64,000 nucleotides of DNA from Thermodesulfobacteriota bacterium (GTDB lineage Bacteria > Desulfobacterota_D > UBA1144 > Nemesobacterales > UBA2774), in assembly GCA_965216785.1 (NCBI GenBank), contig OZ244197.1:2176001-2240000 (forward strand). The letters are read 5' to 3'. Shown here one piece after another: positions 3,499-56,768 of the stretch. Numbering within the stretch: position 1 is the first letter of the stretch; each line of letters opens with the position of its first letter. Under the pieces are notes generated by a model. It was not told where the DNA came from and searched no databases. It worked only from the letters and a program-made list of their open reading frames with translations. The position numbers were made by a program, and so were the translations under genes.

Positions 3499-3885
3499 TA
3501 CTTCTTTTGCATGATCACACACGAAGTGTGAATTACTAAAAGATTACAAAAATCACCGACTGAACACTAACAAGGTGAGTTTTTACAAATGCGCCCTAAG
3601 GACTGAGTAAATTTCTGTCTGCGCGGTATATTGTAGAAACCGTTTGTCAGCACGCACAGCGTGTACGCTAAAAATGAATGTAGTTGTATGATCCTTATAA
3701 TTCCACCCACACCCCGTATAAGGTTTTTAACGCGGACACAGAGTGTCCATTCATACGGTTTCTGCGAAGCTAATAAGTTAGGACAAATAGAAGAGGTTCT
3801 TATGAACCTGAAAAGGAATAGAGAAACAGTATGCCTGCGGGCTCTGCCCGCATTTTCTTTGCGCTATTTATGTATGTCGGAAACT
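3499..3885 (+). repeat. expanded copy (A) of the ~170-nt structured element
   Basis: CTTCTTTTGCATGATC, AAAAATCACCGAC, ATTCCACCCACACCCCG loop and CGCTATT...ATGTCGGAA match the copies at 53766/54838/56454. Confidence 0.75.
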
Positions 3886-49968: not shown

Positions 49969-50847
49969 ATGCTCCTTAATTTTCTGGCCCTGGTTTACGT
50001 ATCCATTGCCTGGGGCTCAGCATTCGTACTGATAAAATTCGCTGAAGAAACTATAGCGCCATTGACCGTGCAGGCGGGTCGGTGCACCATAGGCTTCCTG
50101 GCACTTCTTATTCTTTCGCTCGCGCTGAGGCGGGATATCGCGGGGCACGCGAAGTACTGGTTCGCGTTTCTTGTGTTCGCTATATTGGGAATAGTGTTTC
50201 TTTGGATTACGGTCGCGTTTGGAGAGAAGTACATATCCGCAGGGCTCGCGACCGTGATGGTTACCGTGTCGCCCCTGGTCACTTTCATAATAACTGTATT
50301 TATCACAAGAACTGAGAAATTCAGCATTACCGGTATCTTTGGGCTCGCTTTAGGTGTGGCGGGGCTTGTGCTGGTTGTGGGGATTAAGAATATTTCCGGC
50401 GGAAGCTCGATACTTATGGGCTCGCTTTTAATTATCGCAGGATTCAGCGTGTTCGCCGTAAACGGCATACTGGCGCCGAGGCTGGCAAGCGGTACGGACC
50501 CGATCGCTTCAAGCGCTTACTATACAGGGATGGCGACTGTTTTCTTATGGATATTCGCGCTAATATTCGAGAGTCCGCTCAAAACTCACCTTACACCGGC
50601 CAACTCTGCGGCGGAGATCGTTATGGGCGTGTTCAGCTTCGCAAGCGGCTTCGTCGTTTATTACTGGCTGCTTAACAGGGCCGGGGCGTTTTTTTCCTCA
50701 ATGACTTTTTACCTGATGCCGATCGTGGGAATAGTCGGAGGGTTTCTTATGTTCAGGGAGAAGATAACCGTAACTCAAGTCGCCGGAATCCTGGTCGTTT
50801 TTGCCGGTGTGTATTTGATAAACAGGGCGAAGTTTAAAGAGGGTTAA
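49969..50847 (+). CDS. DMT/EamA transporter 1
   Basis: WGSAF..IK, 10 TM, P..G......E. Confidence 0.9.
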   Translation: MLLNFLALVYVSIAWGSAFVLIKFAEETIAPLTVQAGRCTIGFLALLILSLALRRDIAGHAKYWFAFLVFAILGIVFLWITVAFGEKYISAGLATVMVTVSPLVTFIITVFITRTEKFSITGIFGLALGVAGLVLVVGIKNISGGSSILMGSLLIIAGFSVFAVNGILAPRLASGTDPIASSAYYTGMATVFLWIFALIFESPLKTHLTPANSAAEIVMGVFSFASGFVVYYWLLNRAGAFFSSMTFYLMPIVGIVGGFLMFREKITVTQVAGILVVFAGVYLINRAKFKEG

Positions 50848-50849
50848 AG

Positions 50850-51731
50850 ATGGCGAAGAATTTTGTAGTGCTACTGTACGTGGCGGGCGTATGGGCTTTG
50901 GCAATAGCGTTTATAAAATTTGAGGAAGCGGTGATTCCGCCTATAACTATTATGGCGGGGCGGGCGCTTTTAGCGTTTCTGACTCTATTTGTCGCTTCAC
51001 TGATAATGAAGAAGGACCTTCGGGGAAATGTTAAGCATATATGGCATTTTCTGGTCTTCGCTATACTGGGGATTACGCTTCTTTGGGTGGGGCTTGCTTT
51101 CGGGCAGGAGTATATATCCGTAGGGCTCGCCTCTGTACTTGTTACCACGCTGCCGCTGATTACATTTGTAATACTGGTGCTGATCCTGCGCCAGCAGCCT
51201 TTCAGAATTGTCGGATTCGCCGGGCTGTTGATAGGGTTTTTCGGGATACTGCTGGTTATAGGAATAGAGAAAGTCCTGCAAGGCGGCTCAACAATGCTGG
51301 GGGTTGTGCTGATAGGCGGCGGGTTCGTGTGTCTTGCGATTAACGGGATATTGGCGGCAAAGTGGGCGAGGGGGATTGACCCCGTAATTACGACTACATA
51401 TTTTCTGGGACTCGGCGCGGTTTTTTTGATCGCGTTCGCGTTTATATTTGAGAGTCCGTTGAAGACTCCATGGTCCGCCGATAACATTCTCTCGGAGCTT
51501 GCGCTCGGGGTGGTATGCACCGCCAGCGGGTATTTTGGGTATTACTATCTGCTTCGGAATTCCGGGGCGTATTTTACTTCTTTTATTTTCTATTTCATCC
51601 CTGTATTCGGACTGGCAGTCGGTTATATTGCATTTCACGAGAGGGTGACAATTGTTCAGATTGTCGGTGTAGTGCTTGTTTTAGCCGGGGTGTATTTGAT
51701 TAACCGAAAGGGGGCTGAGAAGAAAGGGTGA
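50850..51731 (+). CDS. DMT/EamA transporter 2
   Basis: Paralog of neighbours. Confidence 0.9.
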   Translation: MAKNFVVLLYVAGVWALAIAFIKFEEAVIPPITIMAGRALLAFLTLFVASLIMKKDLRGNVKHIWHFLVFAILGITLLWVGLAFGQEYISVGLASVLVTTLPLITFVILVLILRQQPFRIVGFAGLLIGFFGILLVIGIEKVLQGGSTMLGVVLIGGGFVCLAINGILAAKWARGIDPVITTTYFLGLGAVFLIAFAFIFESPLKTPWSADNILSELALGVVCTASGYFGYYYLLRNSGAYFTSFIFYFIPVFGLAVGYIAFHERVTIVQIVGVVLVLAGVYLINRKGAEKKG

Positions 51732-51744
51732 AAGAATTTGAGTG

Positions 51745-51822
51745 ATCACCCCCATCCTGACCTTCCCCCCTCAAGGGGGAAGGGAATAGAGGATTAGATC
51801 CTGAAACAAGTTCAGGATGACA
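51745..51822 (+). repeat. REP cluster (family C + family D GATCCTGAAACAAGTTCAGGATGACA)
   Basis: Two hairpins inside the EamA operon. Confidence 0.75.
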
Positions 51823-51825
51823 ATA

Positions 51826-52704
51826 ATGGTTAAAAACTTAATATTACTGATCTATTTGGGAGTGGTTTGGGGCGCCGGGTTTACGTTTATAAAGTTCGGG
51901 CTAAGAGATATGGGGCCGGTTACCGAGATGGCCGTGCGCTCTGTGATCGCATTCCTCGCTCTACTGATAATCTCGATAGTCTTAAAAAAAGATATTAAAG
52001 GTCACGCGAAGTACTGGTTCCCATACCTAATATTCGCGGTGCTCGGGATAGTGACGCTTTGGCTTGCGGACGCGTTCGGGATGGAATACATAACAGCGGG
52101 GCTCGGTTCTGTGATGGTTGCTGTCGCGCCGCTCGTTACCTTCATTATCACAGCGTTCATCTTGAGAGAGGACCGGGTGACCGTACTGAACGTTCTCGGT
52201 CTTTTGGTCGGGGTGCTCGGGCTCGTGCTGGTGGTCGGGATAGATCAGATAGTGGCGGGGGGTACGGTGATCATCGGCGTACTGATTGTAGCCGGCGGGT
52301 TCGTCATTTTCGCGATAAACGGCGTCATAGCCCCAAGGCTGGTGAAAGACGCAGACCCATTGGTTTCCGCGACTTACTTCATCGGGTTTGGATGTGTAAT
52401 TTTACTAATTATCGCATTCATACGGGAGGCTCCTTTAAGCGTCAAGATTACGGAAGACGTGATTATCAGCGAGCTTGGGCTTAGCCTGGTGTCCACGGCT
52501 AGCGGGTTTGTAGTCTTCTATTATCTTCTGGATAAGGCCGGGGCCTTATTTACTTCTACAGTCTTTTATCTCATGCCCGTTTTCGGAATGCTGAGCGGAA
52601 TTGTCTTCCTGGGTGACAGGATCGACGTTACTCAGGCAATTGGAATCGGGGTGGTGCTTTTGGGTATATATATGATTAATAGAGAAAAGTTCAGGAAGGA
52701 GTGA
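51826..52704 (+). CDS. DMT/EamA transporter 3
   Basis: Paralog; start MVKN aligns with MAKN of paralog 2. Confidence 0.9.
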   Translation: MVKNLILLIYLGVVWGAGFTFIKFGLRDMGPVTEMAVRSVIAFLALLIISIVLKKDIKGHAKYWFPYLIFAVLGIVTLWLADAFGMEYITAGLGSVMVAVAPLVTFIITAFILREDRVTVLNVLGLLVGVLGLVLVVGIDQIVAGGTVIIGVLIVAGGFVIFAINGVIAPRLVKDADPLVSATYFIGFGCVILLIIAFIREAPLSVKITEDVIISELGLSLVSTASGFVVFYYLLDKAGALFTSTVFYLMPVFGMLSGIVFLGDRIDVTQAIGIGVVLLGIYMINREKFRKE

Positions 52705-52708
52705 AGCT

Positions 52709-53593
52709 TTGCTATTTAACGTCATTTTACTCTTATACATCGCGTGCGTCTGGGCGTTTACGTTCATATTCGTTAAGGTCGAGGAAGTCGCGAATGTGGG
52801 GCCGTTAACTATAATCGCGGGGCGCGCAATTATAGCATTTCTGTGCCTTTTTATAGCTTCACTCATACTTAAAAAAGACCTTCTGGGGAATTTTAAGCAC
52901 ATTGGGAAGTTCTTGATTTTTACTCTTCTCGGTATAGTGGGCCTTTGGGTGACGCTGTCTGAAGGTCAGGAGTATATAAACGCGGGGCTTGCGTCCGTAA
53001 TGGTTACAACGGTGCCGCTTCTGACTTTTATAATCCTGGTATTCGTGCTGAGGGACGAGAGGTTTAGCTGGGTCGGCGTGGGCGGTCTTGTGCTTGGTTT
53101 TATCGGCATAGTGCTTGTGGTCGAGCTAAAGAACATCCTTGCCGGAGGGACGACAGCCGGGGGGTTTTTACTGATTGGATCAGGCTTTGTCATGTTCGCG
53201 GTAAGCGGCATACTGATCGGCAGGTGGGCAAGGAACATAGACCCTGTAGTATCAACGACATACCTTCTGGGCCTAGGCGGGATTATTCTCCTCGCGCTGG
53301 CATACATCTTCGAAAGCCCGCTTACATTCCCGATTACAAAGAAGAACGTCTTGAGTGAGCTTGGGCTGGGAATTCTTTCCACGGCGAGCGGGTATTTCGG
53401 TTATTACTACCTTCTTCATAAGGCCGGTACATACTTTTCAACATTTATATTCTATTTCATCCCCGTGTTCGGGCTGCTCGCCGGGTATCTGGTGCTGGGT
53501 GAGATGGTGAACATGTCCCAGATACTGGGAGTTCTGTTAATCATCAGCGGGGTTTATGTTATTAATTGGGAGAAGAGGAGGGGGAAGGGGTAG
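52709..53593 (+). CDS. DMT/EamA transporter 4
   Basis: Paralog; TTG start after AAGGAG. Confidence 0.9.
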   Translation: MLFNVILLLYIACVWAFTFIFVKVEEVANVGPLTIIAGRAIIAFLCLFIASLILKKDLLGNFKHIGKFLIFTLLGIVGLWVTLSEGQEYINAGLASVMVTTVPLLTFIILVFVLRDERFSWVGVGGLVLGFIGIVLVVELKNILAGGTTAGGFLLIGSGFVMFAVSGILIGRWARNIDPVVSTTYLLGLGGIILLALAYIFESPLTFPITKKNVLSELGLGILSTASGYFGYYYLLHKAGTYFSTFIFYFIPVFGLLAGYLVLGEMVNMSQILGVLLIISGVYVINWEKRRGKG

Positions 53594-53765: not shown

Positions 53766-53937
53766 TTCTCTTCTTTTGAATGATCAAAAGAAGCAAAAAT
53801 CACCCTCCCAGGCATGAATGACGCTAATAATGAATTACGCAAGTTAAAGTTCACAATTCGGCCCCAGCCCGTGTGAACTTTTTAACACTTACGTTCTTCA
53901 TTTTCTTAACGCTATTCATGCATGTCGGGAAGATTAA
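53766..53937 (+). repeat. ~170-nt structured element, copy B
   Basis: CTTCTTTTG.ATGATCAAAAGAAGCAAAAATCACC...AAAGTTCACA-loop-TGTGAACTTT...GGAAGATTAA. Confidence 0.85.
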
Positions 53938-53966
53938 TACAAAAGCAAATACAAAGACAAAAGATT

Positions 53967-54027
53967 AGATTCTGAAACGATACTGAATAGATCCCGGATC
54001 AAGTCCGGGACAAGGTTCAGAATGACA
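53967..54027 (+). repeat. nested REP (family D containing AGATCCCGGATCAAGTCCGGGA)
   Basis: GATTCTGAAAC...[TCCCGGATCAAGTCCGGGA]...TTCAGAATGACA. Confidence 0.7.
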
Positions 54028-54071
54028 CTGCCAAGAATGGATGGGGAATAGAGATAAAGGGGGTAGTAGAA

Positions 54072-54323
54072 GTGGATAATTTTTATATAGCTTTTGCGGT
54101 GTATTTGAATTTGATTTTTGTGGCGGCGAAGATTTGGGACAAGATCGGCTGGTCGTGGTTTTGGGTGATGACGCCGCTGATTGTCCTTACCGTGATCGGC
54201 GCTGTAGCGGCTACGGGGCAGGCCGCAAAGAAGAAAGAGCTTCGGGGAAACCTGGTGCAGAACCTTCAAACGCTGAGGGAGATGGTGGAAAACTCGAAGT
54301 CGAGGAGCGGGGACAAACATTGA
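54072..54323 (+). CDS. phage-type small transmembrane protein
   Basis: LIFVAAKIWDKIGWSWFWVMTPL resembles the phage K...I.WSW.WV..P motif. Confidence 0.65.
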   Translation: MDNFYIAFAVYLNLIFVAAKIWDKIGWSWFWVMTPLIVLTVIGAVAATGQAAKKKELRGNLVQNLQTLREMVENSKSRSGDKH

Positions 54324-54793
54324 TAAAGAGCTCGGGGAGACAGCTCATTTATCAACACATCCAGGAAGCCCTGCTGCATTACTCACGATACAAACGCGGA
54401 GAAGGTGTACCGCACCTGTTGAGAGCCTATCTGGAAACGCTCGAAGAGCAGTCCGTTGTAGCAAACTACGTGCTCGGGCTTAAGCTGCTGGAGCACAAGG
54501 CCGTGACGATGTACCTGGACGGGAAGCGTGTGCGGGTGATACGGAAGGCTGAGGTATTCAAGAAGAATGATGTATCACTTACACAGATACGGGTGTGGAT
54601 TTACGGCGACCGTGAGCAGTTCGGGCTTGTGAACACGATGTTCGGGGTGTTTATGCGCCAGGCCAGTTTTTGCCCGTTCTGTCATGACCAGAAGCGCTGG
54701 GGAGACGGGGGGTATCAGAAGCGTCTTCACGGGAGCGTGTGTCCGCATAGGGAGATGTGGGAGGAGGAGAGGGAGGCTGAGTGTGATGCGTAA
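54320..54793 (+). CDS. hypothetical phage protein with CxxC...H...CxH motif
   Basis: TTG overlaps upstream TGA; FCPFCH...HGSVCPH. Confidence 0.55.
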   Translation: MIKSSGRQLIYQHIQEALLHYSRYKRGEGVPHLLRAYLETLEEQSVVANYVLGLKLLEHKAVTMYLDGKRVRVIRKAEVFKKNDVSLTQIRVWIYGDREQFGLVNTMFGVFMRQASFCPFCHDQKRWGDGGYQKRLHGSVCPHREMWEEEREAECDA

Positions 54794-54837
54794 CCTAGAT
54801 TGCTACAATGTGCATGCAATCTGACAATATGAAATCA

Positions 54838-55008
54838 TTTCTTCTTTTGCATGATCAAAAGAAGCAAAAATCACCGGCTAGGTAGAAATGACGCTAAAAG
54901 TTAATTATTACGGCTAAAGTTCACAATTCTACCCACACCCCGTGTGAGCTTTTTAACGCCGTCCTAATCAACTTTCTTAACGCTATTTCCACATGCCGGG
55001 AAGATTAA
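54838..55008 (+). repeat. ~170-nt structured element, copy C
   Basis: Same conserved blocks as copy B, with different but paired stems. Confidence 0.85.
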
Positions 55009-55036
55009 AGGCTACTACAACAACATAAAACAAAAG

Positions 55037-55696
55037 ATGAAAGAGATCGTTGAAAGGAAGGAGTGGGAGAAGAGGGGGAGTGAGACGGGGAAGGCGTATG
55101 AGGGGTTTCGCGTTTACCGGGACATGGGGCCTGCGAGGAGTTTGTCCGCCGCCGCATCGCATGTCGGCAAGTCACTCAGGCTTTTCAAGAAGTGGTCTAC
55201 CGTGCACGGCTGGGTGAAGAGGGCCGAGGCTTATGATGAGTATATGGAGCACCGCTCCCGGGACGTGGTGGAGCGAAAGCTCGAAGACGTAAACCACGCT
55301 CACCTGGATTTGGCGAAGAGCGCGCGCGAGTCTGTGATGGTGCCGCTGCAGGCTCTCCTCAAGAGGATAGAGAAGATAAACGAGGACGGGAATTTTTCGG
55401 CTGAAGAGTTTGAGAATATCCCGGTGGATAAGCTGATTAATATCGCCCGACCTTATGTGAAGCTTGCGCTCGATGTGATTAAGCTCGAAAGGTTACTGTA
55501 CGGGCTGCCGACCCAGACGATTAAGACAGAGGGGACGATAGGGCACGAGGTGAGCCACGACATCAGGGTCGTGAATGAATTTATCGAATCGCTGCCGGAA
55601 GAGGAGCTGCTGCGGATTGTCAGAGACTCGAAAAAACAAAGCGCTAAAGAAAACGGATCCGCTGAGCAAGTACCTGCTGGGCCGGGCAAAGGATAG
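55037..55696 (+). CDS. terminase small subunit-like protein
   Basis: WE....E..KAYE.F..YRDMGP.RSL...A...GKS.....WS....W..RA.AYD N-terminal HTH; directly upstream of a TerL fragment. Confidence 0.7.
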   Translation: MKEIVERKEWEKRGSETGKAYEGFRVYRDMGPARSLSAAASHVGKSLRLFKKWSTVHGWVKRAEAYDEYMEHRSRDVVERKLEDVNHAHLDLAKSARESVMVPLQALLKRIEKINEDGNFSAEEFENIPVDKLINIARPYVKLALDVIKLERLLYGLPTQTIKTEGTIGHEVSHDIRVVNEFIESLPEEELLRIVRDSKKQSAKENGSAEQVPAGPGKG

Positions 55697-55871
55697 CCTG
55701 CTCACCTACACCGAGCTTACTTACCCGAAATACAGGGCCAACTGGCACCACGAGCTGATAATCGAGCGCCTGGACTCGGTCGCAAAGGGGGATATCCGGA
55801 GGCTGATGATCCTGGTGCCGCCGCGCTACGCTCGCAATGACGACTTTGAAAGATGGGATTCCGGGTCGTAG
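55575..55871 (+). pseudogene. terminase large subunit, N-terminal fragment
   Basis: YPKYRANWHHELI...L..V..G..RRLMILVPPRY (typical Walker A lead-in PPR[HY]GKS), then reads into a REP and stops; start uncertain. Confidence 0.75.
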
Positions 55872-55980
55872 CCCGGAATGACTTATATGTTCACCCCCAT
55901 CCTTTATCCTTCCCCCTGAAATGGGGAGGAGAAAGAAAGGTTAACTAATCCCCCTTTATTCCCCCTTTGCGAAAGGGGGA
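55820..55980 (+). repeat. REP cluster (truncated family A, GGATTCCGGGTCGTAGCCCGGAATGAC, two family C hairpins)
   Basis: Four adjacent hairpins. Confidence 0.75.
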
Positions 55981-55991
55981 GATGTTGTTGG

Positions 55992-56399
55992 TTATGAGAA
56001 GTGTTTGTAGAGGGTTAGAGCGATGAGGGCGGTGGAGAGTATGAGCAAGATGTTTCGGAATGAGACGCCCAGGATGGCGCGCCGGGTCTGCGGTATGTCG
56101 TATGGCGAGACGATGTTGTGCTCGCCTATGAGCTGAATGGCTTTTGGTGAGGCGAGCGGGATCATGGAGTTACTTTCACATTTGGGGCAGACGCAGGATT
56201 TGATTTTGTACCTGGTGATGGTGTAAAAGAGCGCTATGAAGAATATGATGGAGGCCGGAAACCAGAGGTCTGTGTAGAAAGCTCCGAGCAGCGCGAAGAA
56301 GAATGCCAGGCCCCAGAGGGTGAATTCGGTTTTGAAATTGCCGTAGGAGCTGGAGGCTTCCTCGCCGATGTAGAAGCATTGGGTGCAAAGTTTTTTCAT
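55992..56399 (-). CDS. membrane protein with split zinc-ribbon (CxxC-TM-TM-CxxC)
   Basis: CTQC...TM hairpin...CPKC; start moved to MKKLC because the upstream extension is repeat D. Confidence 0.7.
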   Translation of the reverse strand: MKKLCTQCFYIGEEASSSYGNFKTEFTLWGLAFFFALLGAFYTDLWFPASIIFFIALFYTITRYKIKSCVCPKCESNSMIPLASPKAIQLIGEHNIVSPYDIPQTRRAILGVSFRNILLILSTALIALTLYKHFS

Positions 56400-56453
56400 T
56401 GTTATTAGGATACCCGGCTTCGTTTGCAACTTCGCCACAGGTAGTTTTAATAC

Positions 56454-56625
56454 TTTCTCTTCTCTTGCATGATCAAAAGAAGCAAAAATCACCGACGGTA
56501 CGTAAATAACTAAAAATAGCTTATTCAAACGAAACTTCACAATTCCACCCACACCCCGTGTGAAGTTATAGACGCTTTCATTGCGCAATTTTCTTAACAT
56601 TATTTGCGTAATGTCGGAAGCTTAA
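56454..56625 (+). repeat. ~170-nt structured element, copy D
   Basis: Same blocks; AACTTCACA-ATTCCACCCACACCCCG-TGTGAAGTT. Confidence 0.85.
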
Positions 56626-56656
56626 AGACAAAAGCAAATACAAAGACAAAAAGATG

Positions 56657-56768
56657 AGATTCAGTATCGGAGTCTGGGATGACTGCGTAAGGATGAGATT
56701 GCCGCGCTATGCTCGCAATGACAATTAATTACTAATCCTCCCTAACCCTCCTTTGCGAAAGGAGGGGA
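56657..56768 (+). repeat. REP cluster (degenerate D-like, family A, family C-like)
   Basis: GAGATTGCCGCGCTATGCTCGCAATGACA; CCCTCCTTTGCGAAAGGAGGG. Confidence 0.7.

Follow-up and report, generated by a model that had tools for sequence, protein, structure and literature searches.

The 64,000-nt window analysed here (Thermodesulfobacteriota bacterium, assembly GCA_965216785.1, contig OZ244197.1, positions 2,176,001–2,240,000) carries four copies (A to D) of a multicopy intergenic repeat of ~160 bases. At roughly 60% probability, this element is a non-autonomous repeat that acts as folded single-stranded DNA (ssDNA) on the reverse strand, forming a rod capped by a predicted triplex-pseudoknot (the ‘head’), and that is likely spread in trans by an as yet unfound single-strand nuclease. 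The stems of the element covary, pseudoknot included, copies are gained and lost at orthologous spacers, their polarity in dense arrays follows GC skew, and they stack with hairpin classes of the same polarity; action at the level of DNA, the enzyme and the route of spread are what we infer.

Positions, linker, stems and C-rich loop of copies B, C and D were all found as given in a preliminary description made from the window alone, as were the A-rich tail common to B and D and the palindromes after it; such a tail, in variable form, follows many copies. The 5′ hairpin of that description is present, but its loop in B reads aatgat and the hairpin of D has one mismatch, and the basal stems exist, although that of B is imperfect. 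Copy A, previously listed with the others, is not a simple copy but a long form of 380 nt into which hairpin modules have been inserted. One of these modules interrupts the 5′ hairpin; the ortholog of copy A in genome G002, of the same genus, is a short form. Small hairpins of the CACAC-NNN-GTGTG type (the first three modules of copy A in Table 1) occupy fixed insertion places in the element and are also found within other palindromes, which points to a further mobile module. In the genome to which the window belongs (G000; 3.12 Mb), a profile search found 16 full or module-bearing copies, 13 of them in the 1.93–2.25 Mb interval, plus two fragments, and a later profile gave zero matches at E ≤ 10 on both the shuffled and the reversed genome. 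Contigs of run X5, from a close relative, also span copies B, C and D.

Covariation was assessed in 89 non-redundant copies of standard length (142 matches reduced at 90% identity, long and partial forms left out). Paired cells make up 86.8% of this alignment, vs 71.9% in shuffles and 40–47% with slid partners, and 43 of the 51 pairs change on both sides, counts that are inflated by the relatedness of the copies. The pairs with the highest mutual information are nearly all Watson-Crick pairs of the structure model, and the earlier suggestion that covarying stems reflect selection on structure is borne out. What had been drawn as a hairpin plus a separate linker is rather a pseudoknot that covaries and bears a triplex signature. 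Bases of the hairpin loop pair with the four that follow an A4 linker (TGAT/ATCA, TGAC/GTCA, CGAT/ATCG or CGAG/CTCG), giving an H-type pseudoknot that is 94.4% paired and has compensatory changes in four of four pairs.

Mismatches in the same alignment bear on which strand folds. On the strand of the preliminary description, A·C cells outnumber G·T cells (118 vs 57, or 59 vs 26 when each combination of genome and pair counts as one event; p = 4e-4), and 78/89 copies have A·C as the pair that closes the first internal loop. Because A·C on that strand is G·T on the other, the reverse complement is likely the folding strand. Folding energy is lower on the reverse strand in 88/89 copies with RNA parameters and in 82/89 with DNA parameters; z-scores against dinucleotide shuffles for the four window copies are −5.8, −4.4, −3.4 and −2.2 on the described strand, and on the reverse strand they are −6.0 for copy C (RNA) and −7.9 for copy B (DNA). 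The stems of the fold as originally drawn exist, but probably on the wrong strand and with the pseudoknot and triplex signature overlooked. Read along the folding strand, the element comprises a rod, in which two asymmetric and nearly identical loops are spaced by ~24 nt, an apical loop rich in G and the 3′ pseudoknot. Functions as a single-strand promoter or single-strand origin were considered and dropped, as the words in question, which we take to be TATAAT-like and TAGCGT-like, vary freely in the alignment.

Within the head, the T4 loop and the A4 tract would have parallel orientations, as T·A-T triples require, and in copy B the T4 strand appears to be placed so as to form them. A4/A4 is found in the 87 copies parsed of the 89. 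Among variants of a homolog in Ilyobacter polytropus, a cultured fusobacterium, one has a third strand that matches its AAAGAAA tract, and another has an asymmetric tract that the third strand mirrors instead of repeating directly, which is a triplex signature.

The element could instead act as RNA, either as a transcript of the minus strand or as the 3′ end of an mRNA, in which a telomerase-like U·A-U triple-helix pseudoknot blocks 3′ decay, with spread possibly through cDNA. In favour of such a role, the pseudoknot lies 3′-terminal on the strand inferred to be functional, where its U4 loop is parallel to an A4 tract, the loop-closing pair would be G·U, the folding z is −6.0 with RNA parameters, and many copies are preceded (on the described strand) by T-rich runs that resemble a copied A tail. 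However, genes read into the functional strand in only 71/148 cases, copies are fragmented, nested and module-swapped, and wobble pairs are rare, at only ~3% of paired cells, which we judge low for RNA. Reverse transcriptase (RT) genes, moreover, were found in 9/41 genomes, and none was found in G000, G004, G005, G007, G013 or G022. An RNA element, the ncRNA class of the preliminary description included, appears unlikely.

The spacer between a given pair of genes holds a copy in some genomes and is empty in others. Within the genus of G000, at least nine spacers with a copy in G001 or G002 are empty in G000, two spacers were shown to be shared, and two more are shared by coordinates. Empty sites have ragged ends and lack only the element, and other palindromes vary at the same spacers; neither a target duplication nor fixed ends could be seen where empty sites were compared. 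Copies at the orthologous B site are 58–77% alike mutually vs 75–89% to their nearest other copies. The mobility role proposed in the preliminary description is supported.

The companion proposal of attC-like cassette borders that capture genes is, by contrast, unsupported. Copies do form long co-oriented runs, one every 1–5 kb among accessory genes (across 45–180 kb in G013, G005, G007 and G021), and like the co-oriented structured sites of sedentary integrons, which have the folding strand mostly on the leading-strand template (25/30 integrons; PMC5371416), they have theirs on the inferred leading template, a relation that is looser for scattered copies. Against cassette capture, gene order around copies is conserved across genera, blocks between copies contain entire operons and genes of mixed orientation, all four arrangements of flanking genes occur (51, 41, 30 and 26 around 148 copies), and empty sites lack nothing other than the element. 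No cassette shuffling is seen, the head is a pseudoknot, and IntI (TIGR02249 over cut-off) is found in two of 41 genomes, G029 and G040, neither of which has an element match. Comparison with what we take to be the attC consensus revealed no attC box arrangement on either strand. The attC-like reading is largely refuted, and we give it next to no credence.

A classical miniature inverted-repeat transposable element (MITE) whose transposase is missing is likewise highly improbable. The Ilyobacter units with a head at each end (see below) have the appearance expected of one, but copies in the family of G000 are single-ended and co-oriented, and the element has neither the terminal inverted repeats nor, at the compared empty sites, the target-site duplications or fixed ends by which MITEs are recognised.

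In dense arrays the orientation of copies follows GC skew, not neighbouring genes. Arrays are co-oriented (51/51 copies on contig C10 of G013, 17/17 in G007, 16/16 in G021), and G005 has 45 minus and eight plus copies, with a flip that coincides with a flip in GC skew near 2.26 Mb; 15 of the 16 copies in G000 agree with local skew. The described strand is the G-rich strand, which places the folding strand on the inferred leading-strand template. Four unrelated classes of companion palindrome share the polarity of the element in G013 (16/0, 16/1, 2/0 and 10/0), so that polarity is a property of the zone and not of the element alone. Run-off replication from the flip point was discarded as an explanation, since GC skew there is terminus-like, as was polarity towards dif, which lies 230–330 kb from the flip or the cluster described below. 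Across 2.26–2.43 Mb of G005:C1 (L089–L091, L031–L036), GC skew is −0.12 to −0.25, far stronger than in the flanks, and the flip is 230 kb off dif.

On the favoured reading, that of a mobile ssDNA repeat, the fold would form while the DNA is transiently single-stranded, and the two repeated internal loops and the triplex-pseudoknot would serve as protein-recognition sites. A nick-and-copy route, guided by homology and acting at forks, would paste copies into spacers that already hold hairpins, and could give rise to ragged ends, module swaps and homogenisation. Polarity might arise in either of two ways: the folding strand may be incorporated like a lagging-strand fragment, or copies that expose the folding strand on the lagging-strand template may be purged, as has been reported for attC sites of sedentary integrons.

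The enzyme would be an orphan single-strand nuclease acting in trans. The preliminary description had noted that no cognate enzyme was visible in the window, and the searches of the whole genome and of its relatives found none either. In G000 there is no match for Y1 transposase or GIY-YIG, and of 15 tyrosine recombinase matches the nearest is separated by ~53 kb from any full copy and by ~9 kb from a fragment. A GIY-YIG match of 600 aa, the size of UvrC, is found in most relatives but not in G000, the assembly of which is 92% complete. Y1 transposase is found in 3/24 family genomes, never beside the element. Across the 41 genomes, the presence of RT, Y1, GIY-YIG, IntI or DUF559 does not track the element; co-occurrence with recombinase, HUH or RT genes had been proposed as a check.

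The repeats that accompany the element do lie beside nuclease genes. Companion palindromes, named Ssn-type by position alone, are found on both sides of 7/12 GIY-YIG loci. Motifs resembling TM_ECO, which with BoxC and PIT forms a group of intrastrand triplex repeats (Holder et al. 2015, PMC4666352), lie beside 5/12 DUF559 loci (L264, L265, L266, L267 and L270), and DUF559 is a candidate nuclease for BoxC/PIT repeats. The sole DUF559 locus with the element has a copy 1.1 kb from the gene, inside an array.

Several observations weigh against the favoured reading. No cognate enzyme was found: the element is absent from 12/12 GIY-YIG, 12/12 Y1, 10/10 RT, 2/2 IntI and 11/12 DUF559 loci, and Pfam scans of 134, 57, 58 and 42 open reading frames (ORFs), nearly all of them neighbours of copies, gave no recurring nuclease family, although they left out the 156 ORFs of the G005 array and some listed neighbours. 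Covariation cannot distinguish DNA from RNA, a pyrimidine triplex can form in RNA too (PMC4666352), and the sole sign of a triplex within the family is the invariant A4/T4 tract. In G022 the mismatch bias is reversed (G·T 8, A·C 0). With respect to polarity, only 12 of the 16 copies in G000 fit replichores defined by dnaA and dif, scattered copies in G036 contigs and in G096:C17 are mixed in orientation, and an inversion would reverse the copies along with the skew. Finally, copies are kept at the same spacer in four genera, a persistence that may reflect a host function.

The element and its head are distributed well beyond the genus. Copy C as BLAST query matched 26 of 41 relatives, and a covariance model, with a structure partly off register in some helices and used for detection only, matched 43 of 120 genomes of the phylum and 29 of 32 within the family; lineage-specific subtypes exist. 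G096 has 113 occurrences of the exact head pattern and G050 has 64; the backwards control has none. In a Bacillota genome (21 matches) the same head module, with the same covarying letters, caps a different body, and it is also present in 23 metagenome loci. The Ilyobacter homolog, on a plasmid, has the head and one internal-loop module (31 matches). Units of 400–470 nt with the triplex-pseudoknot head at both ends in inverted orientation are found there (NC_014633.1; L294–L307), and such inverted head doublets were seen only in Ilyobacter and the Bacillota genome. One copy in the latter adjoins cas1, and in NZ_AP025311.1 (L277) a type I-D CRISPR locus has a weak match resembling the head (E 2) in the interval from cas5d to cas7d.

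Copy C gave no match to plasmid and phage collections. An Rfam scan of the window yielded no match at the gathering score and six chance-level matches at E ≤ 10, and one unrelated match was found in 11 loci, in keeping with the earlier view that the element is unnamed. A match to DUF3800-VIII RNA above the gathering score lies in the Bacillota genome (L230:63–129). No description of the element or of the head-tail cluster discussed below was found in a literature search that did not extend to supplements, which may hold motif tables, or to most subscription papers.

Table 1 Coordinates of element copies, companion repeats and neighbouring genes in the window.
Feature	Position	Strand	Remarks
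Copy A	3501..3880	minus	380-nt long form with inserted hairpin modules
Hairpin modules inserted in copy A	3518-3530, 3650-3666, 3734-3748, 3837-3851		First three of the CACAC-NNN-GTGTG type
Copy B	53770..53928	minus	Rod with two repeated internal loops, then 3′ pseudoknot and predicted triplex head (minus-strand view)
Head of B	53770..53802	minus	8-9 bp hairpin; loop pairs with 4 nt past A4/T4 linker (H-type pseudoknot)
A-rich tail of B	53939..53962		Identical to D tail, 56628-56651
Companion palindrome	53990..54011		Kind flanking small GIY-YIG (Ssn-like) genes in relatives
phrog_1374 gene and ~157-aa gene of no assigned family (start uncertain)	54072..54793	plus	
Copy C	54841..54999	minus	Upstream of terS
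Terminase small subunit (terS)	55037..55696	plus	phrog_6299, E 1.4e-21
Terminase large subunit (terL), N-terminal fragment	55575..55871	plus	Similarity to 488-aa G021 protein ends where palindrome begins
Ssn-type palindrome and two BoxC/TM-like triplex motifs, stacked	55857..55979		After truncated terL; TM pattern from PMC4666352
Small membrane protein gene	55992..56402	minus	Homologs between element copies in G007, G013 and G021
Copy D	56459..56617	minus	
Ssn-type palindrome and BoxC/TM-like motif	56695..56766		After D; same polarity as element

The genes between B and D, earlier described as a phage remnant, form the residue of a conserved head-tail cluster at the same chromosomal position in several genera. 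The full cluster includes terS, terL, portal, scaffold, capsid, tail and endolysin genes and is intact in G021 (L040/L108/L109; C1, 239–272 kb) and G005 (C1, 2.26–2.34 Mb). In several genera it is opened by the two small genes that precede copy C in the window, and G007, G021 and G005 each carry a copy at the same position as copy C. The terL fragment matches its intact homolog for ~72 aligned residues and then stops; the match ends at the codons where an Ssn-type palindrome starts (window 55815–55882), which suggests that the cluster was deleted via microhomology with this palindrome. The capsid protein is single-copy and 89–92% identical in 7/24 family genomes of four genera, and no integrase family was matched among the 42 proteins scanned. 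These features suggest that the cluster is domesticated and resembles a gene transfer agent (GTA), making it a candidate for an undescribed one. Upstream of copy B, window positions 49969–53593 hold four tandem EamA-like transporter genes (one scanned), and a similar run is found in G021.

Copies are densest within and upstream of this cluster in five genomes and precede many of its gene blocks in G021 and G005, cluster genes are found in 12/14 IMG/VR loci that contain the head motif, and the element is present in all seven capsid-positive genomes. The element could on these grounds be a cis signal of the cluster, kept by the host so that accessory DNA in its vicinity is marked for processing, packaging or post-transfer recombination. 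This is improbable given that element-rich genomes G004, G007, G013 and G022 have no capsid match with this query, that copies also lie beside housekeeping genes, that the Bacillota and Fusobacteriota relatives are dispersed with no such cluster seen, and that unrelated palindromes are enriched in the same zone. A broader idea, which we hold only tentatively, is that the head defines an unrecognised class of mobile elements that spans phyla, acts as single-stranded nucleic acid, has a triple helix like that of telomerase and depends on a cognate enzyme yet to be discovered. In the family of G000 such an element would have colonised, and may serve, an undescribed GTA, and would thereby have polarised an accessory chromosomal zone of 100–200 kb.

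Among described repeats, the element shares general traits with BoxC/PIT/TM_ECO (PMC4666352), which are also intergenic, combine a hairpin with a third strand, vary sharply in copy number among relatives, are linked to local gain and loss and have no known mobiliser. A homopurine-strand hairpin with a mirror-matched third strand is common to both. TM_ECO, however, is 34–37 nt long with a G/C-rich purine-motif triplex and no strand bias, and the word ‘pseudoknot’ does not occur in that paper. In the element the triplex signature is A/T-rich and locked by a pseudoknot that covaries, the rod measures 125 nt and contains repeated loops, and arrays are strongly polarised. The A/T-rich head does not match the TM_ECO consensus CCCTCNCCC-N3-6-GGGNGAGGG-N3-GGGNGAGGG, and separate TM-like motifs adjoin the element. 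The DUF1874 motif (Weinberg et al. 2017, PMC5737381), suggested there to act as ssDNA, is similarly a complex covarying motif in consecutive intergenic regions with no integrase. It differs in that no Rfam 15 family matches the element.

REP, REPIN and BIME repeats, with their RAYT (TnpA-REP) transposases, are likewise non-autonomous intergenic palindromes that occur as mosaics and, as for the Ilyobacter head, as doublets. The element is unlike REPIN/RAYT in size and fold and in the scarcity of Y1 genes noted above. Ssn-related motifs (SRM/NTS; PMC11893778, where REP/RAYT systems are also described) are clustered non-coding hairpin repeats that act as ssDNA, and repeats of this sort stack on the element with the same polarity. 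SRMs are simple hairpins of 20–50 nt that flank a nuclease gene, in contrast to the element, which is longer, more complex and found at 0/12 GIY-YIG loci. The element is thus akin in kind to BoxC/PIT and to Ssn-flanking repeats but differs from them in sequence and enzyme association, and is apparently undescribed.

The bacterial ssDNA substrates known so far (attC, REP, SRM) are mostly simple hairpins. A covarying triplex-pseudoknot that three or more phyla keep nearly unchanged in sequence on different bodies would be a tertiary structure of natural DNA (or RNA) under selection. As the companion repeats have candidate nucleases of their own, the element predicts an orphan enzyme. In Ilyobacter polytropus, a cultured and harmless host, structure, expression and mobility become testable, which bears on the old question of what spreads triplex repeats of the BoxC/PIT type.

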